This document shows, in pieces, positions 8,654 to 63,685 of a DNA stretch of 64,000 nucleotides (position 1 is its first letter; each line of letters starts with the position of its first letter). Below the pieces are notes generated by a model. That model was not told the DNA's origin and did not search any database. It saw only the letters and a list, made by a program, of their open reading frames with translations. The position numbers and the translations under genes were made by a program. The stretch is from contig DOSJ01000022.1 of the NCBI GenBank assembly GCA_003514005.1, forward strand, positions 13,804 through 77,803, written 5' to 3'. This DNA is from Candidatus Falkowbacteria bacterium (GTDB lineage: Bacteria; Patescibacteriota; Patescibacteriia; Patescibacteriales; UBA12075).

Positions 8654-8663
8654 AATTTTTAAA

Positions 8664-37472: not shown

Positions 37473-37490
37473 CTCCTTCTGTTAAAAGAT

Positions 37491-38051: not shown

Positions 38052-38747
38052 TTATTTCTCACTCTCCAACCAAGCCTTCAAGAGAAATATTGTTTCTGTT
38101 TGCAATTTTGCTCGCGCCCAATCTTTTTGCGACTCGGAAAGTACCTCACCAAGTCCATCAAGAATGTGGCGATTTTCCATTTTTTCCAAAAGTTTTATAC
38201 ATTTTAACAAAACGTCTTTGAATGGCATCTTGGCGCGACCCTCAACCAATTCTCTATTTATCGGCCAATTATTTTTTGCAAAAAAATATACATCATAAAC
38301 ATCACGGCTTGTTTTACCTATTCTTTCATACATAGCCATCAGTTTGTTGGCAAACATATCCTCCTGGATCATTACCCGCATTGAAATGCCCAGCAAAGTT
38401 TTTATTTCATATCTAGAACCAAAATCGCGGCGATTAACTTCTATTTTTATATTCTGAGATTTTATATCGTATGAAATTACTGTTACAAGATTGAAACGCT
38501 TGATTCTTGAATCAACAACTTCGCCATAGCCCATGGCTATTTTTTGAATTTTTTCAAACACTTCTTGTTCTTTGGTTTCATCCAAAAGATCTAGGTCAAT
38601 ATCGACAGAATTTCTAGTCAAATCATAAAACATCATGGCGGCTGTTCCACCCTTAAAACCCAGATAAGGCGAAAGCGAAGAATCGGAAAATATATCTTTC
38701 AAAATTTGCAATAATATATTCTTGTGTTTCGGATAATCTAAAGTCAT
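38052..38747 (-). CDS. AbiEii/DUF1814-family nucleotidyltransferase toxin
   Basis: GFKGGTAAMMFYDLTRNSVDIDLD nucleotidyltransferase motif. Confidence 0.65.
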   Translation of the reverse strand: MTLDYPKHKNILLQILKDIFSDSSLSPYLGFKGGTAAMMFYDLTRNSVDIDLDLLDETKEQEVFEKIQKIAMGYGEVVDSRIKRFNLVTVISYDIKSQNIKIEVNRRDFGSRYEIKTLLGISMRVMIQEDMFANKLMAMYERIGKTSRDVYDVYFFAKNNWPINRELVEGRAKMPFKDVLLKCIKLLEKMENRHILDGLGEVLSESQKDWARAKLQTETIFLLKAWLESEK

Positions 38748-39358
38748 ATATTTTTATTTTCTAATTTGTTATCTTGATAATGTTTATAATACATTCGAAC
38801 TTTTTTATCCATTCTCTTATTACGATATATCGGCAAAATTTCAAAAACCTTATCCCAATCCAAAACGTCCATGTGATCAAAATGATATTCCTTGCTAATA
38901 TATATCCGATCCAAAAATGCCCGCTCTTTTGTAGCGATTGAAATATCATTAACGTGCTCTATACCGATAGTATTGCTTAATACATAATCTTTTAATCTTA
39001 CGAAGGATATTTTTTGACCATCAACTTCAATTTCTCTAGTAACATAAGAAGCAACAAAAATATTTCCATAGTATTGAAAATTTATTCCAGCCCGAGTCAA
39101 TACGGTTTCAAAACTGACATACGCAGGCGTATATATGCGCGTAGCCAATTCAAAACGATCATAATTTTTGTCTTTTGCATAAATACCACGATGCACTCTG
39201 ATTAATTTCCCGGTTTTTACATAATTATTTAACCGAACTCTAACATTGTTTTCTGCTTGTTCACCCCATAACAAAACAATGTCTTTTGTGGAAAATACAG
39301 TCTTTGATGATTTTAATAAAATGTCGAAATATTGACCTTTTTTAGAAATATTTTTCAT
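38744..39358 (-). CDS. AbiEi-type antitoxin / transcriptional regulator
   Basis: N-terminal wHTH-like region with KTGKLIRVHRGIYA, characteristic of AbiEi. Confidence 0.55.
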   Translation of the reverse strand: MKNISKKGQYFDILLKSSKTVFSTKDIVLLWGEQAENNVRVRLNNYVKTGKLIRVHRGIYAKDKNYDRFELATRIYTPAYVSFETVLTRAGINFQYYGNIFVASYVTREIEVDGQKISFVRLKDYVLSNTIGIEHVNDISIATKERAFLDRIYISKEYHFDHMDVLDWDKVFEILPIYRNKRMDKKVRMYYKHYQDNKLENKNI

Positions 39359-39495: not shown

Positions 39496-39885
39496 TTATT
39501 GAAGGAACAAATACATGATAATGATATGAAGGGCATTATCAACCTCTTTGTAAACAATGCAGGAAAAAATTAAGTCGATTTGGTGATATTTGTCGGCAGA
39601 ATTAAAGGCTTTAACTATATTTCTTCCCTTAATCATGTCTAACCATTTTTGCCCAAGCGACCAATAATCAATCGGAAAATGACTTAGAAAAATTACACCA
39701 ACAGTATACAAATCAAAGCGCTGTAAAAATAGACACACACTCACGGTATAGATAGCGCAATGAAGAAAACATATAGTTACACCTCTAAATGATTTTTCTG
39801 ATTTAGTAAGCGCCATTAAACGACTTTGTGTTAAATAATCACCTAACCAACTGCCCATCATTATGTTCGCGAATAGACAATCCAT
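39496..39885 (-). CDS. small membrane protein (DUF3307-like?)
   Basis: Three to four TM helices with His/Asp residues at helix ends. Immediately downstream of the NMNAT-kinase gene. Confidence 0.3.
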   Translation of the reverse strand: MDCLFANIMMGSWLGDYLTQSRLMALTKSEKSFRGVTICFLHCAIYTVSVCLFLQRFDLYTVGVIFLSHFPIDYWSLGQKWLDMIKGRNIVKAFNSADKYHQIDLIFSCIVYKEVDNALHIIIMYLFLQ

Positions 39886-39911: not shown

Positions 39912-40943
39912 CTATTCTAACTCATCGGCGAATCGCTTCGCCACCTCCCTAGTTTTTTCCAAATCACCGCTCGTTACAATTTTTCGAATCATCAAGTTCT
40001 CTGCTTTGGCGATTTTCTTACTCTCGCTCCAACCAGGAATACGACGGATGAACGGCAACATATGTTCAGTGTTTCTACCGTTTACCCGTTTAGCATTTTC
40101 GTTGACACTGTCACAGCCCAGATAAAGCACCTTGCCTCCGACAAAATTGTACATCGGCTTATCCGGTTGCAGGCCGTAGGCAATTTCAACAAATACATGC
40201 GAATTTGCCGGAACGTTGAGAAGTGACTGCTTCAAAAGATTAATCCAAGGAATCCCGATGACTTGCTTCAGTTCCTCTTCGCGTTCCAACGCTACTTTGA
40301 TTAAATCTTCTTCACCAAAATGTGCTTTGAGTAATGGCTTTAATTCTTTATTAAAGCCATCGGTATTAATATGGACAATGTCATCTCTACCCTCTTTGAG
40401 CATATTAAGAAAAGTGCTTTTGCCAGAACCAGGACGACCGACTACGAGAAAAATGTTTTTTAGATTTAGCCGTTTTTCGATCAAGGCAGAAATCACTCCG
40501 GGCGAAACAAATTCTTTCAAACCTTCCAGCTCCAGATTTTGCATCATCGTTCTGACTTTGGTCGCAGATATTCCTTCAAATCCGCAAGTGCTAAAAAAAT
40601 AGATGAATTTATCCACGCCGTATTGTTCTTTATTTAGCTTCATTACTATTTTTTCTTCTTGAAAATCTTCATAACTCCGAAGACCGCGAACCATCACGAT
40701 TTTTTTTCGATTAATGCCAAGCTTGCCCATTTCTTCAAAAGTCGTCAGCGTCACATTTTTCGGCAGATCATAGCTTCGCCACAATTCTTTGCTTTCCTCT
40801 GTTGAAAAGATGTCTTGTTTAAGCGGATTAGTTGAACAAACCACATACACATGCGGCAGACTTTTTGCCGCGCTTTTTACGAGTTCAAAATGTCCTTTTG
40901 TCGGCGGTGAAAAACGTCCCGGATACACATAATAAACTTTCAT
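39912..40943 (-). CDS. NadR-like bifunctional NMN adenylyltransferase / P-loop (ribosylnicotinamide) kinase, no HTH
   Basis: N-terminal cytidylyltransferase motif GRFSPPTKGH (HxGH class). C-terminal Walker A GRPGSGKST. Confidence 0.6.
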   Translation of the reverse strand: MKVYYVYPGRFSPPTKGHFELVKSAAKSLPHVYVVCSTNPLKQDIFSTEESKELWRSYDLPKNVTLTTFEEMGKLGINRKKIVMVRGLRSYEDFQEEKIVMKLNKEQYGVDKFIYFFSTCGFEGISATKVRTMMQNLELEGLKEFVSPGVISALIEKRLNLKNIFLVVGRPGSGKSTFLNMLKEGRDDIVHINTDGFNKELKPLLKAHFGEEDLIKVALEREEELKQVIGIPWINLLKQSLLNVPANSHVFVEIAYGLQPDKPMYNFVGGKVLYLGCDSVNENAKRVNGRNTEHMLPFIRRIPGWSESKKIAKAENLMIRKIVTSGDLEKTREVAKRFADELE

Positions 40944-41081
40944 GGCTTCCTCCTTGTTATTTGGTTGTCAATGATCATATTTGTATTATGGAGGAAAAAA
41001 GATTTTTTGAATTAAAAAAACATGCCACATATTGACATAATTATTATTTTTTGCTATCTTTAAATAAAATAAAAAAATAAA

Positions 41082-41873
41082 TTGTCGAAAAAAATCGACA
41101 ACAATATAAAAAATATGAATAACGAAATCAAAAACAGTTTAAAAAACCTTGGCTTTCGCAATAACGAAATCAAGGTTTATATGGCACTAACCAGTCTGGG
41201 CGAGGCCAATGCGGCAGAGATTGCCAAAAAAGCTGATTTGCCACGGACGACTGCTATTAGTATTTTGGAAAAATTAAAAGAAGATAATTATTTAACCACG
41301 CATAAATATCGCGGCACTACCAGCTATTGGATTGAATCACCACAAACGCTAGTAAACATTTTTGAACACAAAATCGATATCGCAAATTCTCTTGGCGAAC
41401 TCTTGAACAAAGAATATCGCCAAGAAGCGCACTTCCCTTTTGCGGAAACTTATGATACAAAAACAGGCATCCGGCAGTATATTGAAAAATTTTTATGTAA
41501 GCTAAATAAAAATTCCACTATCTACACAATCGATTCTCCCAAAAGCGGAAATTATGCAAAGATTTTTTCTGATAAGATTAGCGAGGTGATTTTAATCAGC
41601 AAGAAAAAAAGAAATATCTCAACAAAATCTTTGATTCCCTTTGGAACTTATGATGATGATATGATCAAAAAAACTCAAGCGCAAAATATTGAAATCCGCG
41701 AACTGCCAAAAGAAATCACATTCAGTGCTTCACTCTGGCTAACAAACGACACACTTACCCATTTCTCTGGTAACCCCCCGTTCTTGGCTGTAGTCCAGCA
41801 CAAACTGATCGTTGCTAGCATGAAAAGTATTTACGATTTTTTCTGGAGCATTTCTAATAGCCCAAAAAAATAA
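41082..41873 (+). CDS. TrmB-like wHTH transcriptional regulator
   Basis: N-terminal wHTH IKVYMALTSLGEANAAEIAKKADLPRTTAISILEKL. Confidence 0.45.
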   Translation: MSKKIDNNIKNMNNEIKNSLKNLGFRNNEIKVYMALTSLGEANAAEIAKKADLPRTTAISILEKLKEDNYLTTHKYRGTTSYWIESPQTLVNIFEHKIDIANSLGELLNKEYRQEAHFPFAETYDTKTGIRQYIEKFLCKLNKNSTIYTIDSPKSGNYAKIFSDKISEVILISKKKRNISTKSLIPFGTYDDDMIKKTQAQNIEIRELPKEITFSASLWLTNDTLTHFSGNPPFLAVVQHKLIVASMKSIYDFFWSISNSPKK

Positions 41874-41874
41874 A

Positions 41875-41910
41875 AAACCCGTTACCTGCTTTCTCGCAAG
41901 TAACGGGTAT
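41875..41910. terminator. bidirectional intrinsic terminator
   Basis: 9-bp stem ACCCGTTAC/GTAACGGGT with A-run on one side and T-run on the other (strong TTTTTTATTTTTTT when read on the minus strand). Sits between convergent genes. Confidence 0.7.
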
Positions 41911-41914
41911 CTCA

Positions 41915-42130
41915 TTAAAAATTTTGTTGTAAAAAAGAATTAAGCTCTTTTTTTTCAACTAGGAACAATGAATTGTATGATGATTTATTGCGCTCAACAA
42001 TTGGCTTTATAATTTCGTGGATAATTTCTCCAGACAAAATTGCAGCTTCTTTTTTGCTGTTTTTTTCAAATTCAAAAATATATACATAGTCATTTGTCGC
42101 CGCAATCCTAAATAATAGACACCATTTCAT
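41915..42130 (-). CDS. small hypothetical protein
   Basis: 71-aa ORF with terminator downstream. No domain recognised. Confidence 0.3.
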   Translation of the reverse strand: MKWCLLFRIAATNDYVYIFEFEKNSKKEAAILSGEIIHEIIKPIVERNKSSYNSLFLVEKKELNSFLQQNF

Positions 42131-42144
42131 TCATATTTTCTCCT

Positions 42145-43062
42145 TCATCTTATTTTATCATTAATTAAAGTAATTTTCGGTTGTGCAGGACTCAACAAGC
42201 TGGCTTTTTTCAAGGCAATCTCATGTCTCCTAAGAATATCTTCCAATAGGTTTTGTGGAGAATCAAATTTTGGATTTTGAAATTTGAGATTGTATTCCTT
42301 GATTTGTTCTTTAGCAAAACTCAAAAGACTATTAGATTCAATAATTTCTTCATAAGAAAAATCCTGCTTTAATGCCTCTTGCACCATCTCAATGATTTCA
42401 TATCTATAGCCCAGATCACCAAAATCTGTTTGACCTAATTCAAGCCCAGCGGTCGGTTCGCGATATGCCAAATCACCAAGACCGACATATGACGCCATTA
42501 TTTTAACCAGTCTTTTTGACAAACCGGCAATCGGGCTAATATGAACAGCCCCATCACCGAATAACGTATAGTAACCGATACCAAAATCTTCATCACTATT
42601 TCCTGTGCCGATGACAAGTTTATTTTCAGTCGCGGCTTTGCCGTGCAATACAACAGCACGAATTTCAGAGGTTAAGTTGCCTTTATGGAATTGATTTTCC
42701 ATCGCTTCCTTATTCGTTGACTTAAACGCATCAACTAATTCGCTAATGTCATGTATTCCGTAACGGATTTTAAGTTTTAAAACAACCCGAATTGCATCAT
42801 GCATATCTTGCTCGTTATTAGTGCTTGATGGCAACATATAAGCTACCAATTCCAGCTTTTGTTTCGGTAAAGTGGCATTATACTTATCAAACGCATGTTT
42901 TGTTATCGCGGCCGTAAGTGTTGAGTCAACACCTCCAGACAACCCGATAACACCACCAGTCTTTCCCAATGAAAGAACTTGACTAACAATAAAATCTCCA
43001 ATTTCATTTAGTACTTCTTGCGGATTAATTTTTGGTAAATAAATTCTTTTATCATTTATCAT
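42145..43062 (-). CDS. nadE: NH3-dependent NAD+ synthetase
   Basis: PP-loop GLSGGVDST and overall NadE length/organisation. Confidence 0.85.
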   Translation of the reverse strand: MINDKRIYLPKINPQEVLNEIGDFIVSQVLSLGKTGGVIGLSGGVDSTLTAAITKHAFDKYNATLPKQKLELVAYMLPSSTNNEQDMHDAIRVVLKLKIRYGIHDISELVDAFKSTNKEAMENQFHKGNLTSEIRAVVLHGKAATENKLVIGTGNSDEDFGIGYYTLFGDGAVHISPIAGLSKRLVKIMASYVGLGDLAYREPTAGLELGQTDFGDLGYRYEIIEMVQEALKQDFSYEEIIESNSLLSFAKEQIKEYNLKFQNPKFDSPQNLLEDILRRHEIALKKASLLSPAQPKITLINDKIR

Positions 43063-43088
43063 GACTTTTCTCCTTTGTTATTTTCGCG

Positions 43089-43982
43089 TTATGCGATTTG
43101 TTTTTTTAATTTCTTCAAAAAGTCTTTTAACTCAGCATCTGAATAATTTTCTAGATGCGAAATTTCGAGTACAATCGGCGTCCGGTGACGGCGAAAATAT
43201 TGCGGATACTTTTTGTAACCGCTGACATTTCCGGGCCGAGGCAACAGATGTTCGTCGTCGCTCCAGTCATTCGGATTAAAAACTCCGCCATTTCCATTAA
43301 AATGAAAATTGAAAATTGGAATGCCCAGTGCCAGATAATTAGCAAAATCAGCTTTGGTGGCCAAGCGTAAATGCCCGGTATCAATCGTCAAGCCAAAAGT
43401 CCGCGTATCACACAGCATTTTTTTAAAATGATTCGGTTGATACCCAAGATTGCCGGCCTTGACTTTTGGATGCGTCATGTTTTCTATGGCAATTTTGGTC
43501 CTGTACCCATACTTGATGCGAATACCATCCAGTTTCATAAAAAAACGCTTTGCTTTTTTCAGCGCATACTTTTCTGAAAATATCTCATTGTTGTTTTCAG
43601 AAAAAACTGGCGGATGCCAAGTTAGTACTGAGCCTAGCCTGTATTTCCGATAAATCCTTTCAAACATAACTAGCCAATCCAAGATTATGTCTTGATGTTC
43701 TTTCACACAAACATTTAGCCCTTTTTCAATGTTAATTGAAACGGTCGTTTCTGTCGGCAGATGAATTTGCACGACTACGCCTTTTAACAAGTTTTTTAAA
43801 TACGTTAAGTTAATACCGTTTGGCACAAAAGAACGGTTTTCATAACTGTACAATGGGAAACCAGATTGTGCCATGCAATGAGGATTTATTTCCATCATAT
43901 TTACGCCAAATTTCATTACTCGATTTATCTCATCAAGATTTTTTACGGAAAATCCAATTAACTGATTATCTTTCCACGCCAT
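43089..43982 (-). CDS. TIM-barrel sugar phosphate isomerase/epimerase-like protein
   Basis: Conserved acidic/His positions (..IENM..., ...IDTGHL...) resembling xylose-isomerase-like TIM barrels. Confidence 0.3.
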   Translation of the reverse strand: MAWKDNQLIGFSVKNLDEINRVMKFGVNMMEINPHCMAQSGFPLYSYENRSFVPNGINLTYLKNLLKGVVVQIHLPTETTVSINIEKGLNVCVKEHQDIILDWLVMFERIYRKYRLGSVLTWHPPVFSENNNEIFSEKYALKKAKRFFMKLDGIRIKYGYRTKIAIENMTHPKVKAGNLGYQPNHFKKMLCDTRTFGLTIDTGHLRLATKADFANYLALGIPIFNFHFNGNGGVFNPNDWSDDEHLLPRPGNVSGYKKYPQYFRRHRTPIVLEISHLENYSDAELKDFLKKLKKQIA

Positions 43983-44126
43983 AACACTACCTCCGTTTTT
44001 AATTGTTTTCTATTATTAATTTTTCAAAGATCATTTCTCCTTGCTGAAATAAACTATACTTATAATTTATTTTAGTAAAGATGGCAGGGAAGGAATTTTT
44101 TTCACTTCCCTGCCGTGTTTTGAATA

Positions 44127-44924
44127 TTATCCCCTAAAACCCTTTTTTGTCTGTAGAGCGAGAAAAAAATTACTGTTTTCCAGTACAACAATCTTTAATT
44201 TTACTGGGTGTTTTTTAACAATAATCATGCCACCGTCGCGAACAACGTCTAGTTTTTGACCATCACCAAATAATAAGGCACTACCGGGCGGACGGCAAGG
44301 TGCTACTTCAATTTTTATGATTGAATTATCAGACACAATCAATGGTCGAGTATTACAAACGGTCGGGCAAATCGTTGTTATTATAAATATTGACTGCACA
44401 TCGGGTTCGCAAATAGGACCTCCAGCGCCTTGATTATAGCCAGTTGAGCCAGTTGGAGTGCTAACAATTACACCATTTGCCTTTAAACTATCATGCACTA
44501 GAATATCATTTTTCCAAATAGTATAATATGGAACACCTTCGGAACCTTCAAAATATACGTCATTGACTAGCGGCCCAAATTCTTTACCGCCATATTTAAG
44601 CATGAGGCCAAGGCGTTCTTCGATTCTAAAATTCCCTTGCAAAAATTCCGATATTGGCTTTTCCCAATCCGTAATATGACCATAGGTTAAAAAACCAACA
44701 TTTCCCGCATTAATCGATAAAACTGGGATACCAAGTTTTGAACACGCCGATGCAGTCCTCATTAAATTAGAATCTCCGCCAAAAGTAATTTCATATTCCG
44801 GCTTGTCTTCCCTTTTAACAATATCATCTCCGTGTTTTTTCAACCAAATCTTAATATCATTAAAAATTTGCAAATTATTTCCTTCTTGTGCCTTATACGG
44901 ATCAATGCTCATTGAAATTCTCAT
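44127..44924 (-). CDS. nadK: NAD+ kinase
   Basis: GGDG-type motif region (FGGDSN), NVGFLT motif, C-terminal STPTGSTGYNQGAGGPI. Confidence 0.8.
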   Translation of the reverse strand: MRISMSIDPYKAQEGNNLQIFNDIKIWLKKHGDDIVKREDKPEYEITFGGDSNLMRTASACSKLGIPVLSINAGNVGFLTYGHITDWEKPISEFLQGNFRIEERLGLMLKYGGKEFGPLVNDVYFEGSEGVPYYTIWKNDILVHDSLKANGVIVSTPTGSTGYNQGAGGPICEPDVQSIFIITTICPTVCNTRPLIVSDNSIIKIEVAPCRPPGSALLFGDGQKLDVVRDGGMIIVKKHPVKLKIVVLENSNFFLALQTKKGFRG

Positions 44925-45060
44925 ATTCTCTCCTTTATTAATTGTTATTCAATTGTTAAAAATTCCCTCCCTTAATAAAAATATCTTACTCTAAAAATAT
45001 TTTTAGTAAAGGCCGGTAAAGAAAGCTGGGTTTAGCTTTCTTTACCGGGGTATTGATAGA

Positions 45061-46644
45061 TTACCTCACCTGTTTCAAGGCTTCTTCTCTGATTTTACTT
45101 CTCTTTTGACGCAAGGCCTTTGTCATGGCAATACCGGTTTTGTTTTCACCAATATCTCTAGTAAAATCAGGTCCAAGCGTTTTTCGCTGTAAACTTGATC
45201 TTTCCACGCCATTTTGAATTGCTAATGACCGCGCTAATGATTCATGTGTATACTCGGGATTGAAAAATGGTTTTCCAGGATTTGTTAATCCGTCGTACAA
45301 TAACACTTTTTGACTTGAATAGTTTGGCGGTGCGCTTTCTCCTTTTTCTCCCAGAATGTAAACGCCGGTATCATTATTTATAAACCATTCAACACGGCCA
45401 GGGACAGATTGTTTCATTGTGTCATCGAGACATATTTTCATTGTCTCAACTGTGTCAATTGGTTCTTTTGGAGTACCGTCATGGAATAAACAAGCTTTAT
45501 TGGCCACTTCAAGCGCTCTCCTTGGTCCAATGAATGCACCACCGGCTCCATGAATTGCACGCTCTTTGGAAAGGCCATACTGCTTACGTTTTTTCTCTGC
45601 CTCCAGCACGTCCAAGGGTTTGTGTCCATCTTCAAAAACAACATTAATCATTTTTCCCTCGTCTTGCAGAACTGTTAAATCATGCATTCCGAGTTTTAAT
45701 GTATCTCCGCTGTCCGGACGTTCCGCAAACGGTGCCGGATAACCTTCTCCTAACAGTTGCTGTAAATCTTTAAACCCATAATCATGCTTGATAATATCAA
45801 GTAGCACAGTGCAGTATGGTCCGAGTTCAGAGCCTAATAAAGCCCGCAATGAATCAATGAATTTTTTCCATTGCTGATAAAAGCAATGTCCCGTGGTGCC
45901 CGCACTCTTGAATGGAGCGCCATTGATAAACGCACCAAGATCATTTGACGTGGAAATAATACCACCACCAATCAACATCGCCAAAAGCATATCGTCACTA
46001 AACTCACAATTCTGCAAAGCACGGAAAGCGACTTCAATAAATCGCCAAGGATCGCCTAGTACTTCGGCAAATTGCGCGGCAATGGTTGCCACATGGGTTA
46101 ATTGCCCAATCTGAATATACATTGGTTCATTTACCCATACCGCCGGTTTTTCACCATATATTTCCGCAATCGGAAATGGTACGCCGGTAAATACAGCCCC
46201 TTCTCCAACACATTCAATCCGTATCGGCAAGTAGCCATCAAAATCATCAACAACATGGTGCCAGTATTCAGCATTAAACTGCCGAGGATGACCATTGTGT
46301 TTACCGGATTGAAAATCAGCGACCAAGTCAACTTCATTATGCGTAATCTGATGACTCAAAAATTCCAACCATTTCCAGAATCCAGCCGCAACCGTAAACC
46401 CACCAAGCTGTTTTCGAACTAACACGTGATGCGCCGCATATTTTTTTCCCGGCAAGCAAGCCATAAAATGCTCATAGTTATCACTTAACACCAATGGAAT
46501 GTTTTTGGCAATCATCTTTCTCAGCCATTGCGGAATTTTCATAAAATCTTCGTATCTACTCGGTAACTTACCGTACCCAAAATGCTTTAGAAGTAAATTG
46601 TTTGCCTCTGACATGTCCTTTCCATAATTTATGTATGAACTCAT
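45061..46644 (-). CDS. nicotinamide/nicotinate phosphoribosyltransferase family protein (NAMPT-like)
   Basis: About 527 aa from the Met at 46644. The longer track ORF to 46803 would overlap the upstream GNAT gene by 143 nt. Type II PRTase-like length and motifs in an NAD-salvage neighbourhood. Confidence 0.5.
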   Translation of the reverse strand: MSSYINYGKDMSEANNLLLKHFGYGKLPSRYEDFMKIPQWLRKMIAKNIPLVLSDNYEHFMACLPGKKYAAHHVLVRKQLGGFTVAAGFWKWLEFLSHQITHNEVDLVADFQSGKHNGHPRQFNAEYWHHVVDDFDGYLPIRIECVGEGAVFTGVPFPIAEIYGEKPAVWVNEPMYIQIGQLTHVATIAAQFAEVLGDPWRFIEVAFRALQNCEFSDDMLLAMLIGGGIISTSNDLGAFINGAPFKSAGTTGHCFYQQWKKFIDSLRALLGSELGPYCTVLLDIIKHDYGFKDLQQLLGEGYPAPFAERPDSGDTLKLGMHDLTVLQDEGKMINVVFEDGHKPLDVLEAEKKRKQYGLSKERAIHGAGGAFIGPRRALEVANKACLFHDGTPKEPIDTVETMKICLDDTMKQSVPGRVEWFINNDTGVYILGEKGESAPPNYSSQKVLLYDGLTNPGKPFFNPEYTHESLARSLAIQNGVERSSLQRKTLGPDFTRDIGENKTGIAMTKALRQKRSKIREEALKQVR

Positions 46645-46660
46645 TTTTATGTTCTCCTTT

Positions 46661-47176
46661 TCAACTTGGTTTAACCGCAGAAAATACCAATAAATCATAA
46701 AATTGTTTTGCCAACTTGTAGCGTCCGCGCAAAATGCCGTCACAGTTAAAATCGGACAGGCTTTTGCATACTTCAACCATATACTCATCACACTCTGGTA
46801 CATTTATATAGACTGTGTTTAACTTTAATTCAGCAAATGCTATTTTTAACAAAACATTTATTGCCGATTTTTCAAAAACCATATTTTGAAAAGCCGGAAA
46901 TATCATAATTCCCAATCTGGCATTTTCCATAATAGTATCAATCTCATGAAGTCCGATTGTTCCAATCGCATCACCAGATGTATACTGGCGTATTATAAAC
47001 AGTTTATCGGTTTCACTTTGACACATTTTTTTCAAATATGCTTGTTCAGATTGTAGACCAAATGGCTCTGAGAAAAAAGCAATATTTGCTCCTACTCCAC
47101 CATTTATGCCATCCAGTATTTCTTCTGCATGACAGGCTTCTGCCCTTGATAAAAAAATCCTCCTTTCATCAGACAT
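46661..47176 (-). CDS. GNAT-like acetyltransferase
   Basis: 171 aa with GNAT-like beta/alpha pattern. Confidence 0.35.
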   Translation of the reverse strand: MSDERRIFLSRAEACHAEEILDGINGGVGANIAFFSEPFGLQSEQAYLKKMCQSETDKLFIIRQYTSGDAIGTIGLHEIDTIMENARLGIMIFPAFQNMVFEKSAINVLLKIAFAELKLNTVYINVPECDEYMVEVCKSLSDFNCDGILRGRYKLAKQFYDLLVFSAVKPS

Positions 47177-47206
47177 TTCAAATCCCCCTTCTATTAAATT
47201 GTTATG

Positions 47207-47319
47207 TAAAGATCATCCGGCTTATTTAGTTTTTTAAATAAGCCGAGAAAGCTTTATCCAAATATCTTTTGGGTAAAATTTTCTATTGGGCAGTAGTGAG
47301 TTTTTTCACTACTGCCCAG
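47207..47319. repeat. about 110-bp direct repeat copy 1 (two hairpins)
   Basis: Near-identical to 48715-48816. Contains hairpins CGGCTTATTT-AGTTTTTT-AAATAAGCCG and GGGCAGTAGTGA-GTTTTTT-CACTACTGCCC. Confidence 0.9.
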
Positions 47320-47335
47320 TTTTTTGTTTATTGCT

Positions 47336-48214
47336 CTACGAGAAAAAATTAAAGGCTTTTTTATAAATTTCCTTATGGTGATCGATACCAAACTTAGGAA
47401 CACCTTTCTCAGTATCCCAGACAAAAATATCATCAGCATCACTACCGGCTTGGAACATCTTCTTTAAAAGCTCTTCTGACAATACCCCTTCGTAAGGAAT
47501 AACGGCAGTAATCGCAGTTGTTTCATTAACCCTTTTTTTATTCAGGTGTTTGATTTTTTCATCTTCACCCGTTACAAATTCGCCAAGGGAGAAAAGTTCA
47601 GTATTGATGATCCTACCCCCAAGCTGAATCACAACTCTTTTGTTCATTAAGTTCGGATTGTCCATATCTTCAGTTGTAACTGGCAATATTTTTATCGCCG
47701 CTTCATCCAGTGATTCATGGAGCAAAGCTTCAAACGGTGTCTGAAATTTATAACCAACAACATCACGATGACCGCCGATAAATGCTGGTTTCCCTTTCCC
47801 AGGATCATCTTTGCGGATAATACCGACAAAAAAAGTTTTCAAATTAATATCCTCAAAAAACGGAACAAAATCAACAGTCAGCACCGGCAATGGATACTCG
47901 ATGTTTCCCATTAATGCTATGTAATAATAATCATAATTATCACCTTCTCGGCTTTTAACAACCGATATTACATCTCCATAAGGTCCGAATAGCCCCCAAT
48001 AATTATAATGCGGAGTTATTAATTTTTCCACATACGCTAATTCCGCCTCAGGCGTTCTGTCATCCGATTTTTTGCAATCAATATAATTCATAAAAAAATC
48101 CTCTGGTCTCACACTTATTCTGTCTTTTGCAAGACTCTTTATCTCTTCATTATTATGAACGTGCGTTACAGAGATAATTTTCCCCATTTTTCCAAACACC
48201 AAATAATGAAACAT
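47336..48214 (-). CDS. hypothetical protein with degenerate Nudix-like segment
   Basis: 292-aa ORF. GGHRDVVGYKFQTPFEALLHESLDEAAI loosely resembles a Nudix box. Confidence 0.3.
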   Translation of the reverse strand: MFHYLVFGKMGKIISVTHVHNNEEIKSLAKDRISVRPEDFFMNYIDCKKSDDRTPEAELAYVEKLITPHYNYWGLFGPYGDVISVVKSREGDNYDYYYIALMGNIEYPLPVLTVDFVPFFEDINLKTFFVGIIRKDDPGKGKPAFIGGHRDVVGYKFQTPFEALLHESLDEAAIKILPVTTEDMDNPNLMNKRVVIQLGGRIINTELFSLGEFVTGEDEKIKHLNKKRVNETTAITAVIPYEGVLSEELLKKMFQAGSDADDIFVWDTEKGVPKFGIDHHKEIYKKAFNFFS

Positions 48215-48223
48215 GCTTCCTCC

Positions 48224-48676
48224 TTATCGTTTTTTAGTTAATCTTGATTTTCTCAAAACATCATTAACAATTCGATTATTATTTTTCCAAACCTTTTTTC
48301 GTATCCGCTTCGTCTGCTTTTTACTCTTGCCAAATATACCAAGCTCATTTTCATCCACTATTTTCGGTAATTCATCAATCCTAAATGTCTTCATGATTGG
48401 AAAGATGTCATCCGCAATGCAATTGAATAAATCCAAATCATTCTCTACGTCTCCAAAAACGATACTGCCTGGTCTGAGAACTGGATTAGCACCTGCCCCT
48501 ATTACCAAAATTCCAGAACAATGTCCGATTGAGCTTGTCATCAACTTTTCTTCTTCGCATTTACTTTTGACGAATTCAACAATCCCGCGTATATCGTCTT
48601 CGGTTAATAAAAAATACTGATCCAAAGCGCAATGTTTGTATCGCTCTAAAATTTCATCAACAATCCGATCGTTCAT
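48224..48676 (-). CDS. hypothetical protein with basic C-terminal tail
   Basis: 150-aa ORF, C-terminal KKQTKRIRKKVWKNNNRIV. Confidence 0.3.
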   Translation of the reverse strand: MNDRIVDEILERYKHCALDQYFLLTEDDIRGIVEFVKSKCEEEKLMTSSIGHCSGILVIGAGANPVLRPGSIVFGDVENDLDLFNCIADDIFPIMKTFRIDELPKIVDENELGIFGKSKKQTKRIRKKVWKNNNRIVNDVLRKSRLTKKR

Positions 48677-48714
48677 ATTCGCTCCTTTGTCATTTAGATA
48701 ATTTATTTTAATTT

Positions 48715-48816
48715 AAAGATCGTCCGGCTTATTTAGTTTTTTAAATAAGCCGAGAAAGCTTTATCCAAATTAGCTTTGGGTAAAATTTTCTTTGGGCAGT
48801 AGTGAGTTTTTTTTCA
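48715..48816. repeat. about 110-bp direct repeat copy 2 (two hairpins)
   Basis: Same two hairpins as copy 1. Together the copies bracket the 47336-48676 two-gene unit. Confidence 0.9.
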
Positions 48817-48994
48817 CTACTGCCCGACTATTACTACATGCAGAGTATTACACATTCTTGGTCCGGTATTCCGGAGCTTAAGACTCTATCAAACTGCAAA
48901 TCAAATGTAGAAGAAAAGTTTTCTGAATCAGTTAAAACAAATCTTTTATCTGAATCAACAATCTTCGGTACTATTTCCTCGACAATCTCAATCT

Positions 48995-50755
48995 TTATGC
49001 CACCATTTTTTTTGTGCATAATCGCTCCTTTGGATCAGTTAAATTTAATGATTCTATTTCTTTTTTCATTTCCTTATACACATGTTTTTTTAATTCAAGA
49101 AAAAATTCCAGTGTGTTGAAATGCGGAATATTACTTCCGATATTCCTGTGGCAACGCAAAGGCAGTACATCATCATCTGCTGTAAACCCTAGTCTTTCGT
49201 CAATTAACCGTGCAGACAAATACACTCTGCGTGCCGCCTGAAAAAGCTCCTCTTCGTTTATTTCGCCATATACTTGCTCATACAAACCGGCAATGGCGCC
49301 GAGGCTGGGCTTGGCAAATTTGCAAAGGCCAATCAGATCATACAAGATAATATTGCTACCGCGTTTGCAATTTTCCGCCCATTCTTCCAGACTGTTTTCC
49401 GCGTCCGGATACCACGCACGATTGTAGGTGTCCATGCTCATGTGTAGGCCGGCAACCGCAAAGGCATAACCGGGATTCACATTCCCTAAATAGCCAGGGA
49501 GTTCCAGGCCTTTTACATGCAGGGCATACGAATGGTCATAACCGCTAACCCGCATAACACCTTCACTCAAAGTGTCCTTTCCCTCTCCGATTTTTTTTGC
49601 CAATGAATAAGCATACGCAAAATCGCCGAAACGATTATCTCTTTCCATGGCAAACGCAATCGCGCCGCCAAGTGAAATCGTGTCCATGCCCATCTCATCG
49701 CCAATTGTTATCAACTGCATAATTTGCCGCAGATCAAATATTCCGATATTCGGCCCGAGCAGAGCGCCCGGCTCATAATCAATCTTGCCCAGGATATTTT
49801 CCTTTTCACAAACCTCTTTCCAGCACTTAATCGTACAACCGGTGCAACCCTTGGTTTTTACTGTTAGGCCGTCTTCTGCCACTTTCTCGGAATAAAGCTT
49901 TTCCACTCTTTCCCTATACAAAGGTGTATTGGATTTTGTGAAGTTATCAAACAACCCAAGACCCAATAATGGCAGCCCCTCTATATTCGAAGCAAAAGTT
50001 CCTTTTTCAGTATATTTTTTTGATTTTGGCGAAGCAACAATCTCTTTGTTAATCGCCTTGGCATCAAGCTTGTGCTTCCCTCCTCCACGCTTGACTACAA
50101 TTCCCAGTAAATTTTTACTGCCCAAAACAGCACCAAATCCACCTCGGCCAAGAAAGCGCATATGACCGCTTTTACCTTTGATATCGTCGCTTGTACTAAT
50201 AGCGACATTGGCAAAACGCACTTTGTTTTCTCCGGCTGTTCCGATAACAGCAAACGCCGCGTTTTGATAAATTTCAGACAGAACCCGAATTTTATCTTTT
50301 GTTGTTTTGCCGATTAATCCTTTTGCCGGTAAAATCCTGACACCATCTTCACCTATCTCCAGAAACATCGGCTCGTTCGCCTTGCCTGTGATAAGCAAGG
50401 AATCAATGCCCGTACTTTTTAAATACGGACCAAAATCACCACTGGCTGCGGAATAATAGATTCCGTTACTGCCACTGCGACTGGTTTTTAAGGGACTGAG
50501 TCCGCTTAAAAAAACGCGACGAGCAGATATCACCGAACTTCCGGTAATAAATCCCAGATCAAACGACAGCATACTTCTTGTGTCATAAGCATCGTCCAAA
50601 TCAGAATGATTAAAAAGTTGCTGACCCACAGCATTTATCCCCCTGGAAACACCACCAAGCCTTTCTTCAACTGACGTGTTTTTCAAATCAACATCTGTTC
50701 TTTTAATATTTCCGGAACACAAGTTGATTGCTATGCGCTGATAACCATCCATCAC
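48995..50755 (-). CDS. aldehyde:ferredoxin oxidoreductase family protein
   Basis: About 590 aa, N-terminal AOR_N-like region, Gly-rich GRGGFGAVLGSKNL motif and C-terminal domain typical of tungsten/molybdopterin AORs. Confidence 0.65.
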   Translation of the reverse strand: MMDGYQRIAINLCSGNIKRTDVDLKNTSVEERLGGVSRGINAVGQQLFNHSDLDDAYDTRSMLSFDLGFITGSSVISARRVFLSGLSPLKTSRSGSNGIYYSAASGDFGPYLKSTGIDSLLITGKANEPMFLEIGEDGVRILPAKGLIGKTTKDKIRVLSEIYQNAAFAVIGTAGENKVRFANVAISTSDDIKGKSGHMRFLGRGGFGAVLGSKNLLGIVVKRGGGKHKLDAKAINKEIVASPKSKKYTEKGTFASNIEGLPLLGLGLFDNFTKSNTPLYRERVEKLYSEKVAEDGLTVKTKGCTGCTIKCWKEVCEKENILGKIDYEPGALLGPNIGIFDLRQIMQLITIGDEMGMDTISLGGAIAFAMERDNRFGDFAYAYSLAKKIGEGKDTLSEGVMRVSGYDHSYALHVKGLELPGYLGNVNPGYAFAVAGLHMSMDTYNRAWYPDAENSLEEWAENCKRGSNIILYDLIGLCKFAKPSLGAIAGLYEQVYGEINEEELFQAARRVYLSARLIDERLGFTADDDVLPLRCHRNIGSNIPHFNTLEFFLELKKHVYKEMKKEIESLNLTDPKERLCTKKMVA

Positions 50756-50939
50756 ATTCTCCTTTATAATTTTGTTTTTCTTATATTATTTAAAGATCCA
50801 GACCTCAAACAAAACCGCTTAAGGCCAAAAATTTTTCTCTAAAGTTATTTAGGGAAAAGTTTTTTAAGAAAATACGAGAAAGGTTTAATAGTTTTTTTAT
50901 TAAACCTTTCTCGTTAATATTTTTTTCGATTTTCAATTA

Positions 50940-51698
50940 CTAATACTTAAAACTAAAAACATCTTCTGAGGTTGTAAATTTTGCTCCGGCTTTTGCCATT
51001 CGTGCCAATGCCTTTATGCCAAACCCCATATCCACGTTACCTTCAAAATCAATATTTACCTCCTCAATTGCATCCGTAACAACATATACATCAAAATCAA
51101 GATTATATTTTTTCTTGATTGCCAGCATCGCAAGTACAGCCGCAAGAACGCAATAGTCGGTCGCAAAACCGTAAACAATCATTATTCTAAGACCCTGTTC
51201 AACAAACATCTTGAAAGCCATTTCAAAATTCGGATTTGTCGCAACATCATATGTTTGTTTTTCAAAAATCAATTGCATTCCAGAGTTAATAAACATCTGT
51301 ATTTCTGCCATCGTATAAATCCGTGTGCCAAGCAAGGGACCTTCTTTTGACTTGATATAAATATCTTTTTGAGGTTCAAGAAAATCAAGCCTCAATTGCC
51401 CTTTGGTTCCATTCATTGCATGATCAATAAACGAGCCGCCTTTATTTCTGATCAATTCAGCATCTTCGTAAAAATGCCGATCAACAGAACCAAATATTGA
51501 CCAACCATTTGCCTGAGCAAACTCATGTATACTACAAATTATCGGAAGAACGGCTTCAGCGCCGTAATATCCCGGCTTTTTTACTTTTTGTCCATAAACA
51601 AAAAGTTCACCATTTCTAAATGAAAAACATCCTTGCACATCTGTTTCGTATGCCCCAATATGAAAAATTGCCATTTTTTTTCCTTTCATTTTTGTCAA
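50940..51698 (-). CDS. isochorismatase-family hydrolase (nicotinamidase-like)
   Basis: Catalytic-region pattern MIVYGFATDYCVLAAVLA with conserved Cys. NAD-salvage neighbourhood. Confidence 0.6.
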   Translation of the reverse strand: MTKMKGKKMAIFHIGAYETDVQGCFSFRNGELFVYGQKVKKPGYYGAEAVLPIICSIHEFAQANGWSIFGSVDRHFYEDAELIRNKGGSFIDHAMNGTKGQLRLDFLEPQKDIYIKSKEGPLLGTRIYTMAEIQMFINSGMQLIFEKQTYDVATNPNFEMAFKMFVEQGLRIMIVYGFATDYCVLAAVLAMLAIKKKYNLDFDVYVVTDAIEEVNIDFEGNVDMGFGIKALARMAKAGAKFTTSEDVFSFKY

Positions 51699-51704
51699 AA
51701 CACG

Positions 51705-52331
51705 TTAACTTTTCCACTCATACCCTTTCCACCCATACAATTTATCCCAAACAATAACGCGAGCCACATCCTCGCATACCATATCACAGAAGCTTTCATC
51801 ACCGGCTTTTATCCGTCTCCGAATTTCCGTACTAGAGCCGAATATTCCTTCTAGTGGCAGGTAGACACTACCAAAAGGTAAATCATCAGGTTCATATTCT
51901 TTGCACGGACGTCCGCCGACTAAAAAATGCAATTGATTGTAGTCGGTTTCTTTTCTCGCCCAATGCTTGTGAATATACGAACTTCCTTTTGCGCCGCCGG
52001 CAATAATTTCTGCTCCGACAAAATGAAGAACTTTGCCCTGTTTAGAATATATATCACCCAAAACATGCGTTGGTCGGAAACAATTTTTTTCCAAATCATA
52101 CACATCAATCTCTATAAGGCCGTCTTCTTCCAGCTGTCCGAACGCGCTGTAAACCATTTCAATGCGTTGGTCTAAAGTGGTTCCTTGACTGGGCTTATCC
52201 TTTCTCGGTCCGCAAGGAACTACAATGATCCGCGCGTTGTTAAAACGATTGCAAATCCGCTCAAGTACTTGAACGTGGTGATTCCCCGGCGGATCGAATG
52301 AACCGCCAACTAAAATTATTCCTTGTAACAT
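51705..52331 (-). CDS. NMN/NaMN adenylyltransferase-like cytidylyltransferase
   Basis: N-terminal GGSFDPPGNHH (GxFxPxHxxH) motif. Confidence 0.6.
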   Translation of the reverse strand: MLQGIILVGGSFDPPGNHHVQVLERICNRFNNARIIVVPCGPRKDKPSQGTTLDQRIEMVYSAFGQLEEDGLIEIDVYDLEKNCFRPTHVLGDIYSKQGKVLHFVGAEIIAGGAKGSSYIHKHWARKETDYNQLHFLVGGRPCKEYEPDDLPFGSVYLPLEGIFGSSTEIRRRIKAGDESFCDMVCEDVARVIVWDKLYGWKGYEWKS

Positions 52332-52357
52332 ATCAAACCTCCCTATTCAATTTAATT

Positions 52358-53422
52358 TCACAGTCCAAGACTGTCGCAAAAATCCGAAGCCGTTTTCTCA
52401 ACTTCTTCCCTGTTCCATAATCCATCCAAAAGATATTTGGGAATTATCTTGGTGCCATTGTATGCGCCGAGCAAAGACCCGACCATCGCGCCGTTCGTAT
52501 CCGTATCGCCACCGGCATTTATCGTCTCAAAAAGCGTTTCAATACTGTATGAATTCCGCAAAAACATAGCATAGGTAAAAGGCAACGAATTATATACATA
52601 GCAAGTTGCGCCGTCGGTTGCAGACAATAACTCATCAACGGTCATTTTCATATAAGCATCATCCTGAAAAAGATTTTTAAAGCGCTCACTAAGCTTATCG
52701 ATCATGCCATCGTTTATTAAATAAGCCTCTCCTTTTTCTGCGGCATTTATAACCATTGCAGTAAAATAATTATTCACAGAGCCAAGGTCTAAATATGTAT
52801 CAAAACAAGTAAGAACAGCTCCGACTTGCGCAAAACCGGAGGCAATACCCATGCGCGTACAATGAGTCATTTGAGCGATTTCTGCAATGCAATCTAAATA
52901 TATATCTTCGCGTTTAGAAACAAATTCTTTATACTCACAATATTCCAGACTTTTAGCCGCATTTTCTATTTCTTCTGCGAATACAGCTCCCACCGGTGCG
53001 ATTTTCATGGAGATGCCGTTACCCGCGCCTGTCGGATTACCCATCTCAGAAATATTACAATTCGGATAAACACCTTTAATCCTTTTTAATGATTCAATCG
53101 TGCTTCCACCCCAACCGGCAGTGCTTCGTTCCATTTCTTTGACATGTTCAAGAAAAACATGTTCGATAGTAAATGATTTTTCGATAATATACGCCCGTGC
53201 GATTGCTAAAGTTAATTGCGTGTCATCCGTCCATTGTCCTTTCACAAAACCTTTGCACCATTTATGGTCCGGACGCGCAGGCAGATAGTCCCGGATATAA
53301 CCGAAAGGTTCTTGAATTTCTTTTTTGGTTAATACTTCAACCGGCATACCTAGGGCATCGCCGATTGCTCCCAGCAAAAACATCGCCATAATCTTGTCGC
53401 GCATAATTTCTTTATGCTCCAT
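52358..53422 (-). CDS. ADP-ribosylglycohydrolase family protein
   Basis: N-terminal GAIGDALGMPVE motif and length typical of DraG/ARH-type enzymes. Confidence 0.8.
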   Translation of the reverse strand: MEHKEIMRDKIMAMFLLGAIGDALGMPVEVLTKKEIQEPFGYIRDYLPARPDHKWCKGFVKGQWTDDTQLTLAIARAYIIEKSFTIEHVFLEHVKEMERSTAGWGGSTIESLKRIKGVYPNCNISEMGNPTGAGNGISMKIAPVGAVFAEEIENAAKSLEYCEYKEFVSKREDIYLDCIAEIAQMTHCTRMGIASGFAQVGAVLTCFDTYLDLGSVNNYFTAMVINAAEKGEAYLINDGMIDKLSERFKNLFQDDAYMKMTVDELLSATDGATCYVYNSLPFTYAMFLRNSYSIETLFETINAGGDTDTNGAMVGSLLGAYNGTKIIPKYLLDGLWNREEVEKTASDFCDSLGL

Positions 53423-53710
53423 TGCCTCCTCCTTTTTAGCTTATTGTTTTTATCAAAGATCAATGCCCGAAAAAACTTTTTCAGACAATAATTAATGATA
53501 AAAATCCTTTTAAATTAGCATAATTCTATTATTTTGTCAAGATTGCAATATTTACTTAGTGTATATATAACACTATATTATACTTATTTTATTTTCTTGT
53601 CAAGAAAAAAGAAACTCATTATTATTTTTACTAATATTAAATATTTTTTGTAAATAAAAACTCTATAACCTTTTTTAGGAGGTTATAGAGTTAATGGGGT
53701 TAATTGGTTT

Positions 53711-58260: not shown

Positions 58261-58300
58261 AGATTACACTAACTTAATTTTACGATTTTGTCAAGCTACA
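58261..58300 (-). promoter_or_regulatory. putative sigma70-like promoter with extended -35 CTTGACAAAAT
   Basis: Reverse complement reads CTTGACA-17nt-TAGTGT upstream of the 406-aa gene. The same CTTGACAAAAT motif recurs upstream of other minus-strand genes. Confidence 0.35.
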
Positions 58301-63516: not shown

Positions 63517-63685
63517 TTGTAAAGATCAATTAAATTTTTACAATCTGTATTTATTTATATAAACACAAAATAATAAAAATTTTCCTATTTTAATTTCAAA
63601 AATTAGCAGAATTTAATACAAATGTCAAGTTTCGACATAATTTCTTTATTTGTGTAAAAACAACACTATCAAAACCCAAAAATTT

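Follow-up and report, generated by a model that had tools for sequence, protein, structure and literature searches.

The best described counterparts of the locus analyzed here are the NrtR regulons, which are ordinary metabolic regulons in many bacteria (PMC2330246). The published NrtR operator is a 21-bp palindrome with a GT-N7-AC core, and ADP-ribose releases NrtR from DNA, that is, acts as an anti-repressor; the known regulon types include nrtR-pncA-pncB-nadD-nadE in Clostridium acetobutylicum and nrtR-prs-nadV in Shewanella (Rodionov et al. 2008, PMC2330246). We analyzed a 64,000-nucleotide stretch of contig DOSJ01000022.1 (hereafter, the window) from a bacterium of the Candidatus Falkowbacteria lineage, which belongs to the candidate phyla radiation (CPR, Patescibacteria); identical proteins carry that name. 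The part of the window between 39.9 and 64 kb is occupied by an NAD cluster in which every gene except the one encoding a TrmB-like regulator lies on the minus strand. We consider it likely that this cluster is a chromosomal, NrtR-controlled regulon for NAD(P) salvage and ADP-ribose recycling that extends from nrtR at 64 kb to at least the NadE gene at 42.1 kb. The system is of a known type but more complete than usual and also extended; any novelty lies in an associated module of protein kinases, vWA proteins, and a PurA-like paralog, in the fusion of one of these kinases to an NMNAT-like domain, and in a leader element found upstream of several genes. Gene identities were assigned from an open reading frame listing combined with Pfam and NCBIfam scans, PDB profile searches, and Foldseek searches with AlphaFold models. 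Labels of the L0xx form denote contigs or loci from related genomes used for comparison, with L024 being the source contig, which extends past the window end.

The nrtR gene enters the window with its last 104 codons (63686-64000, minus strand, running past the window end), which encode the C-terminal winged-helix domain (PF21906 NrtR_WHD, 78.7 bits). On the source contig (L024, 7817-8491), the full gene encodes a protein of 224 amino acids (aa) with an N-terminal NUDIX domain and a C-terminal WHD_NrtR domain. A perfect NrtR-type palindrome, TAGTGTATATATAACACTA, is located at 53557-53575, directly 3' of a TTGACA-N17-TATAAT promoter and upstream of the gene for an ADP-ribosylglycohydrolase (ARH). 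Another candidate operator, TTGTGTAAAAACAACACTA on the plus strand (63650-63668, one mismatch to the palindrome), separates the nrtR stop codon from TTGACA-N17-TGCTAATTT, the promoter of the gene for the kinase at 62335-63492. The consensus of these sites, TAGTGT-N7-ACACTA, includes the GT-N7-AC core of the published operators. The window holds three copies with at most one mismatch, where 0.06 would be expected, and this number was not reached in any of 100 shuffles. A further copy is present at the nrtR promoter just beyond the window, where the promoter-plus-palindrome layout matches that of the 53557 site (L024; the same holds for nrtR of L006), and the palindrome adjoins nrtR also in L006/L011, L008/L018, L009, L027, L029, L030, L032, and L036, in some of these in tandem. 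Because the palindrome is found at both main promoters of the cluster, upstream of nrtR, and beside nrtR in other CPR loci, we interpret the cluster as an NrtR regulon.

The genes for the NAD and ADP-ribose enzymes, all on the minus strand, encode, in the direction of transcription, an ADP-ribosylglycohydrolase of the DraG/ARH family (52358-53422; PF03747, 157.2 bits), a NadD/NMNAT-type nicotinate/nicotinamide mononucleotide adenylyltransferase (51705-52331; PF01467, 42.9 bits; TIGR00482, 49.1 bits, under the cut-off), an isochorismatase-family protein (50940-51698; PF00857, 36.5 bits against a cut-off of 27), a divergent Nudix-fold protein of 292 aa (47336-48214), a GNAT acetyltransferase with a homologue at the same position in L008 (46661-47176; PF13302, 35.8 bits), a divergent type II phosphoribosyltransferase (PRTase) of 527 aa (45061-46644), the NAD kinase NadK (44127-44924; PF20143, 75 bits; PF01513, 39 bits), and the NH3-dependent NAD synthetase NadE (42145-43062; PF02540, 164.9 bits; TIGR00552, 150.9 bits against a cut-off of 63.65). 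The isochorismatase-family protein is probably the nicotinamidase PncA: its best NCBIfam match is the nicotinamidase model PRK11609, far under the cut-off of that model, and inspection by eye identified two motifs that nicotinamidases have, ATDYCV with the catalytic cysteine and the metal motif D-x-H...H-x-x-x-G-T-x-G. For the 292-aa protein, a single-sequence Pfam scan gave nothing, and BLASTP against the Nudix protein of L019 detected no match, so that profiles were required. An exhaustive HMMER search yielded a family of 130 representatives, the profile of which matched the NrtR-like structure 2fml (7e-10) and the NadM-Nudix structure 2qjt (3e-6) in PDB; PF00293 is matched by 13 of 40 family members, and two glutamates of the Nudix box, E167 and E171, do not vary. 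Given these profile and PF00293 matches and the invariant glutamates, the Nudix label is valid at the family level; the domains most similar to the protein are the Nudix domains that bind ADP-ribose in NrtR-like and NadM-Nudix proteins.

This gene set spans nicotinamide salvage through NADP together with ADP-ribose handling, as had been proposed in the initial annotation of the stretch, which noted a dense NAD salvage and ADP-ribose neighborhood. Its labels for NadE, NadK, ARH, GNAT, the nicotinamidase-like isochorismatase, the NMNAT-type nucleotidyltransferase, and, at the family level, the Nudix-like protein were all confirmed by the matches listed above, and so were NrtR at the window end and a separate, canonical Nudix hydrolase outside the cluster (25614-26138, minus strand; PF00293, 66.2 bits). 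Like the known NrtR regulons, the cluster has a Nudix-winged-helix-turn-helix repressor at its head, palindromes with a GT-N7-AC core at its promoters, predicted autoregulation of nrtR, and targets of the pncA, PRTase, nadD, and nadE types. Unlike these regulons, it is far larger, with eight NAD and ADP-ribose genes that include NadK, ARH, and an additional Nudix-fold protein; its PRTase is not covered by the curated models for NAMPT and NaPRT; it also includes two Ser/Thr kinases, vWA proteins, a pyruvate kinase (PK)-like barrel, and a PurA-like paralog; and the host is a CPR bacterium.

The same genes are clustered, not scattered, in related genomes. In L006 (Parcubacteria), the order is NrtR-NMNAT-kinase-vWA-PK-like-PurA-like-ARH-isochorismatase-Nudix-like-PRTase-NadK-NadE, which is the window cluster minus its insertions. 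Other arrangements are NrtR...NMNAT-GNAT-Nudix-PRTase-Prs-NadE in L008, NrtR-PP2C-...-ARH-PRTase-Prs-like-NadE in L009 and L036, and vWA-PurA-like...PncA-NMNAT-ARH-Nudix-PRTase-NadE in L019. L021, from another member of Falkowbacteria, contains the gene types of the kinase/vWA module in the same order, beside ARH, a canonical NaPRT, Prs, a Nudix-like protein, and NadE, whereas in Desulfococcaceae, the PRTase comes after an NMNAT::NadK fusion. Orthologues of the adenylyltransferase adjoin the PRTase in seven loci and are fused to NadK in L013. In a set of 23 PRTase loci, of which many are short, the neighbors include NrtR (7), NMNAT (7), NadE (6), ARH (5), PncA (4), Nudix (4), and Prs-like proteins (3). 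The set thus recurs around orthologous PRTases in independent CPR contigs, and the clustering is far beyond chance. In three of these loci, a Prs-like gene lies directly 3' of the PRTase gene and is followed by a long NadE of 648-676 aa (L008 11753-12706; L009 11883-12818, divergent; L036 11802 onward); this PRTase-Prs-like pairing is that of the phage Adps-Namat and classical prs-nadV operons.

The PRTase belongs to a small family (~66 clusters, 58-77% identity) that is found in Parcubacteria-type CPR genomes and some Desulfobacterales only. It is similar to NAMPT (NadV) in the fold and in the N- and C-terminal sequence and contains the phosphoribosyl-site motifs RPDSG, EDG, and GxG. The family profile matched NAMPT in PDB with an E-value of 4.5e-10 over two stretches (118-198 and 299-438) and human NaPRT (4yub) with an E-value of 0.046 over the central stretch 143-259. 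In a Foldseek search with the AlphaFold model (pLDDT 77, residues 177-232 poorly modeled), all 50 of the top 50 matches were NAMPT (E ~4e-12), with a TM score of only ~0.34 and 16% identity to human NAMPT. The protein scores under every curated threshold (NAMPT_N PF18127, 19.5 against 25; NF006629, 36.9 against 405) and does not match the NaPRT Pfam models PF04095 and PF17767. The active site was compared with those of the phage Mx1 NAMPT and the canonical NaPRT of the Falkowbacteria locus L021. The central family motifs IEVAFRALQ, STSND, and GTTGHC resemble LEFGIRRAQ, GTSNV, and GTHAHS of NaPRT (PncB), with E..R..Q, TSN, and GT..H in common, and are unlike HDFGSRGVS, GSDTV, and AAEHS of NAMPT. 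In NAMPT, Asp219 confers the preference for the amide, and nicotinate enzymes have a serine instead. The position of Asp219 of human NAMPT would correspond to Ser233 in STSND, as in the GTSN motif of NaPRT, in an alignment that is weak and in a region where the model is poor; an invariant Asp235 follows two residues after Ser233 in the PRTase family.

Given that these motifs look NaPRT-like, the pathway encoded in the cluster is most likely the Preiss-Handler route (PncA-PRTase-NadD-NadE), not NAMPT plus NMNAT. The PRTase shares its neighborhood with PncA-like, NadD-like, and NadE genes in the window, L006, and L019, and L021 has its canonical NaPRT in the equivalent place. For the substrate, we lean toward nicotinate, possibly along with nicotinamide. 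The overall similarity of the PRTase favors NAMPT, and hhalign aligned it with the L021 NaPRT at a probability of 11%, the motif match being otherwise made by eye; because of this weak alignment and because the features form a mosaic of NAMPT and NaPRT, we keep the nicotinate assignment to a lean. The initial description of the enzyme as NAMPT-like thus holds for the fold and not for the active-site motifs. With its restricted distribution, mosaic features, and scores under all curated thresholds, the family differs from both NAMPT and NaPRT.

Directly behind the nrtR-proximal candidate operator are seven genes, all on the minus strand. The first encodes a Ser/Thr protein kinase of 385 aa (62335-63492; PF00069, 48 bits), the start of which was revised to the ATG at 63492, preceded by an AAGGAG ribosome-binding site, and which has orthologues at the corresponding place in L006 and L021. 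Next comes a 493-aa protein that combines a vWA domain with a beta-sandwich (60695-62176; AlphaFold2 model, pLDDT 81) and for which Foldseek retrieved integrin beta-I, SpaC, and Ku80 vWA domains, whereas its profile did not match any PDB sequence. The family of this protein includes more than 1,000 homologues at ~45% identity and is spread across phyla; in Planctomycetes, Myxococcota, and one unclassified 4.7-Mb contig, the kinase always precedes it, and a PurA-like gene often follows. The third gene encodes a pyruvate-kinase-like TIM barrel of 303 aa lacking the other PK domains (59715-60626; PF00224, 29.4 bits against a cut-off of 30; NCBIfam pyruvate kinase, 37.5), with KGxxxR, KIE, and ARDDL motifs recognized by eye and with conservation in L006 and L021.

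The fourth gene of the module encodes a paralog with the adenylosuccinate synthetase (PurA) fold and an altered aspartate and IMP site (58296-59684; PF00709, 240 bits; NCBIfam, 210 against an equivalog cut-off of 402). The GTP P-loop and the catalytic histidine are retained, and the aspartate-binding motif TTGRxRR is replaced by WQG(K/R)FR(I/V)GW in six of six triad-linked homologues (WQGKFRIGW form). By these sequence features, the PurA-like proteins are a paralog family distinct from the housekeeping PurA. Members are encoded in the window and at L006 5422-6846, L019 1082-2476, L021 12522-13886, L020 9483-10877, and L023 9473-10735; the paralogs are always located downstream of a Ser/Thr kinase and a vWA plus beta-sandwich protein, in CPR, Planctomycetes, and other phyla.

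The next two proteins are a helical protein of 406 aa (56976-58196), without matches in Pfam, NCBIfam, or PADLOC, and a 352-aa protein (55885-56943), without matches in Pfam or PDB; proteins of 395 and 338 aa, respectively, occupy the same places in L021 and are positional equivalents. The 352-aa protein contains a MIDAS-like DNSGS motif, identified by eye, and is possibly a TerY-like vWA domain. The seventh gene encodes a Ser/Thr kinase of 698 aa (53711-55807; PF00069, 95.9 bits) fused to a C-terminal nucleotidyltransferase domain that resembles archaeal NMNATs. As a single sequence, this domain gave only noise against PDB, and BLASTP against the L006 NMNAT detected nothing, so that profiles were required here as well; the only PDB matches of its profile are archaeal NMNATs, with weak E-values of 0.29-1.4 and an alignment that spans PHRGH, RDP, and SSNP. 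The domain (53711-54520) bears the signatures ARMGIPHRGH, RDP, and SWGEILR, the last one found by eye, and its family comprises 16 matches, one of them annotated as NMNAT by JGI.

The module is tied to NAD genes in several CPR genomes and lies behind an NrtR-type operator in the window. Of the kinase/vWA/TerD cluster that had been reported next to the NAD genes, the kinase and vWA part stands, and its position there is not incidental: it recurs in other CPR genomes and, like the salvage block, follows an NrtR-type operator; TerD was not found, since the Pfam, NCBIfam, and PADLOC scans identified no TerD domain between 53.7 and 63.5 kb. The closest described counterparts of the module are the TerY-P signaling triads of a vWA protein, a PP2C phosphatase, and a Ser/Thr kinase. 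The window also combines vWA proteins with Ser/Thr kinases, and PP2C is encoded in the related NrtR-headed loci L008, L009, and L036. The module differs from the triads in that neither PP2C nor TerD was found in the window, in that the vWA protein bears a DUF2135-like beta-sandwich, in that a PurA-like paralog and a PK-like barrel stand in the place of ATP-grasp and PRTase enzymes as partners, and in that the domain fused to one kinase is NMNAT-like and not a zinc ribbon or OB fold. The 2012 Ter study of Anantharaman et al. reportedly also noted a link to biosynthetic enzymes of the nucleotide type. Our search of the literature on CPR NAD metabolism and on the kinase-vWA-PurA triad found nothing specific.

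Upstream of several genes of the cluster, we detected a leader element that is a candidate for a new cis-regulatory RNA. A two-hairpin form ending in GAUCUUUA precedes the GNAT gene (47201-47284, minus strand), a near-identical copy precedes the gene for a 150-aa protein (48708-48791, minus strand), and the leader element also precedes a gene for aldehyde:ferredoxin oxidoreductase (AOR; 50785-50865, minus strand). In its general layout, a single hairpin or a pair of hairpins leads into (R)(Y)CUUU(R)(M)A, and the start codon lies 25-50 nt further downstream; short-form sites are found at 44023-44032, 53454-53462, 63518-63527, and 40969-40977. Copies outside of the window, at orthologous leaders of other CPR loci, include L006 6925-7020, 8918-8999, and 11630-11720, L019 9022-9135, L028 344-422, and L029 2519-2597. 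The short motif is present in 6 of the 20 leaders of the cluster and in none of the 39 others (Fisher p = 8.6e-4); GATCTTTRMA occurs in five copies against 1.2 expected, all five in cluster leaders. The ARH leaders of the window and L006 have AUGAUCUUUGAUAAAAA in common after a hairpin with compensatory changes, and RNAalifold predicted 13 pairs for the element, 8 of them with compensatory changes; the two-hairpin form is also found in L006, L019, L028, and L029. Conceivably, the UCUUU segment could pair with the downstream Shine-Dalgarno sequence.

A covariance model of the leader recovered the training sites and added a single weak site, which precedes an NMNAT gene, with none in non-NAD loci; because the model adds only this one weak site beyond its training set, the RNA stays a candidate. 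A gathering-threshold Rfam scan of the whole window detected tRNA-Trp only, and a permissive scan of 39.9-64 kb gave nothing credible and did not find the NAD-I or NAD-II riboswitch. Two other explanations of the motif were rejected: a leader peptide for ATGATCTTT, since the would-be start codon varies among ATG, TTG, ACG, TGG, and AAG, and regulation by TrmB, since L006 and L021 carry the motif without TrmB. The copies in front of the GNAT and 150-aa genes are part of a duplicated intergenic segment of ~110 nt (47177-47335 and 48677-48994) that contains a terminator-like hairpin, GGGCAGTAGTG..CACTACTGCCC, and the leader element and stands before two different genes.

Interspersed with the NAD genes are several others. 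The AOR gene (48995-50755, minus strand; AFOR_N, 129 bits; AFOR_C, 152 bits) is a window-specific insertion in the middle of the cluster that bears the leader element of the cluster and is absent from L006, L008, L009, L019, and L021; the enzyme is of the tungsten type. The 150-aa protein (48224-48676, minus strand) has no Pfam or NCBIfam match and no assigned function. A xylose-isomerase-like TIM barrel (43089-43982, minus strand; PF01261, 28 bits, under the cut-off of 31.1) and a TrmB-type helix-turn-helix regulator (41082-41873, plus strand; PF01978, 47.4 bits) are also specific to the window. At the far end, the 39912-40943 gene (minus strand) encodes an adenylyltransferase similar to phosphopantetheine adenylyltransferase (PPAT, CoaD) fused to a P-loop kinase. 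All 34 significant PDB matches of its N-terminal domain are PPATs, and the best NCBIfam model is CoaD (TIGR01510, 73 bits), whereas the C-terminal domain has only generic P-loop matches; no conservation of the gene was seen in related loci. The previous label of this protein as a NadR-like NMNAT-kinase is therefore replaced, and the protein may act in CoA rather than NAD metabolism.

The remaining genes of the window are ordinary cellular genes, including those for ABC transporters, metal transporters, a P-type ATPase, and one tRNA, along with several genes of defense type. The region 4345-10340 (minus strand) contains a candidate restriction or DISARM-like set that consists of a NOV_C-domain protein, an SNF2-family helicase, a 457-aa protein, and a C5 cytosine methyltransferase of 558 aa. 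A protein combining Bro-N and Fic/DOC domains is encoded at 17052-17987 (minus strand), and a pair of small proteins whose hydrophobic N-termini resemble those of type IV pilins at 37020-37880 (minus strand). An AbiEi/AbiEii toxin-antitoxin pair (38052-39358, minus strand) is followed by a DUF3307 membrane protein (39496-39885). The flanks and the cluster are alike in base content (GC 0.37-0.39), and the strand skew across 40-64 kb is the same; nothing points to a foreign insertion, and the context is chromosomal.

Taken together, the observed features, namely, the gene identities, the synteny, and the presence and conservation of the palindromes, suggest the following model, in which the effector, the PRTase substrate, and the part played by the module are predictions. 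NrtR would repress transcription through TAGTGT-N7-ACACTA sites at three promoters, those of nrtR itself, the kinase/vWA block, and the ARH block. ADP-ribose, a by-product of NAD consumption that would also be freed from modified targets by the ADP-ribosylglycohydrolase, is predicted to lift this repression, as it does for NrtR in other bacteria. The PncA-like nicotinamidase would then convert nicotinamide to nicotinate, and the divergent PRTase would join nicotinate, and possibly also nicotinamide, with phosphoribosyl pyrophosphate to form the mononucleotide, which would be converted to the dinucleotide by the NadD-type adenylyltransferase, to NAD by NadE, and to NADP by NadK. The Nudix-fold protein could handle ADP-ribose. 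The module of the kinase, the vWA, PK-like, and PurA-like proteins, and two further proteins, together with the kinase-NMNAT-like fusion, would be co-regulated with the salvage genes. CPR bacteria have reduced biosynthesis and rely on salvage, a lifestyle into which such a regulon would fit.

In addition to the similarity of the PRTase to NAMPT, several points weigh against this interpretation. Binding of the operators by NrtR and the effector role of ADP-ribose are predictions from the sequence pattern, and the dependence of this host on salvage is deduced from its lineage. The genes for AOR, the TIM barrel, TrmB, the PPAT-kinase, and the 150-aa protein have no obvious role in NAD metabolism and are not conserved elsewhere. 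Furthermore, there are numerous intergenic terminator-like hairpins and internal promoters within the cluster, and because of their number, the cluster is not a single operon.

An alternative to an NrtR-controlled salvage regulon is an island of NAD/ADP-ribose conflict, in defense or stress, in which the module would sense attack or NAD depletion or make a nucleotide signal, and the salvage enzymes would restore NAD after NADase-type abortive infection or host-symbiont conflict. The AbiEi/AbiEii pair directly beside the cluster would be in line with such a role, as would the SNF2 helicase, C5 methylase, and NOV_C protein at 4.3-10.3 kb and the Fic/Bro-N protein in the same window. The kinases score against the PD-T4-6, MADS6, and PglW models, PP2C phosphatases are present in the NrtR-headed loci L008, L009, and L036, and the module, in which one kinase has an NMNAT-like domain, is conserved across phyla also at a distance from NAD genes; moreover, vWA-plus-kinase modules resemble TerY-P triads, some of which work as stand-alone defense systems (PMC11090510). 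However, the kinase matches are to the generic kinase domain and far under the family cut-offs, and PADLOC models match none of the vWA, PurA-like, PK-like, ARH, Nudix, and PRTase proteins; with generic kinase matches only, no known defense system can be assigned. The window encodes no NADase effector of the SIR2, TIR, SEFIR, or RES type, and control by NrtR is common in ordinary metabolism (PMC2330246). We therefore regard a conflict island as unlikely. The grouping could also be put down to chance, with unrelated housekeeping genes brought together in a compact genome, because CPR genomes are gene-dense and mostly co-directional and several non-NAD genes are interspersed here, but the set recurs in independent genomes near PRTases that are orthologous and even near some that are not, which effectively refutes this reading, and the blocks also have operators and the leader motif in common (the 6/20 versus 0/39 distribution given above), which leaves chance with a negligible probability.

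The initial annotation also saw in the cluster the NAMPT plus NMNAT logic of phages, and a cassette for NAD reconstitution derived from a phage or mobile element and countering NAD-depleting immunity would resemble NARP1 (Adps plus Namat) or NARP2 (NAMPT plus NMNAT). In common with these pathways, the cluster would rebuild NAD from nicotinamide and ADP-ribose breakdown products by means of a NAMPT-fold enzyme and an NMN/NaMN adenylyltransferase, both of which are present; in L008, L009, and L036, the gene after that of the PRTase is PRPP-synthetase-like, as in Adps-Namat pairs, and bacterial homologues of NARP1 are known (PMC12774641). The differences are as follows: the context is cellular and controlled by a repressor with conserved candidate operators at the head of the cluster, and PncA and NadE indicate the deamidated route, for which the PRTase has NaPRT-like motifs. 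The PRTase family has no relative among the 2.9 million viral contigs of IMG/VR, and its matches to annotated phage NAMPTs are partial and remote (24-33%). The selectivity clamp of Namat, GSX-Phi-X-Phi-X-Phi-TRD (PMC12774641), is absent on comparison by eye, the family consensus being YGAGSAFxGPRRALE. The window lacks a Prs/Adps gene, the surroundings of the cluster contain no phage or integrase genes, and GC content and skew equal those of the flanks. The phage interpretation was accordingly abandoned as highly improbable.

A more far-reaching version of the regulon reading, which we put forward as speculative and rather unlikely, is that the CPR NrtR regulon serves for more than salvage and couples NAD turnover to the conserved cross-phylum module, which would make or sense a nucleotide derivative and in which the NMNAT-like domain would let one kinase read nucleotides of the NAD pathway, to a new PRTase lineage intermediate between NAMPT and NaPRT, and to a cluster-specific leader RNA (two hairpins plus GAUCUUUA) that might function as a new riboswitch of the NAD pathway or a protein-binding attenuator.

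CPR bacteria are thought to scavenge cofactors and nucleotides, and their NAD supply is poorly documented. The cluster described here offers a concrete picture of it, with a complete nicotinamide-to-NADP route under a predicted ADP-ribose-responsive repressor with clear operators. It also contains four items that lie outside current databases, namely, the PRTase lineage with mixed NAMPT and NaPRT features, the PurA-like family, the kinase-NMNAT-like fusion, and the candidate leader RNA. If the module indeed follows the NAD/ADP-ribose status of the cell, NrtR-type control would extend from metabolism to signaling.

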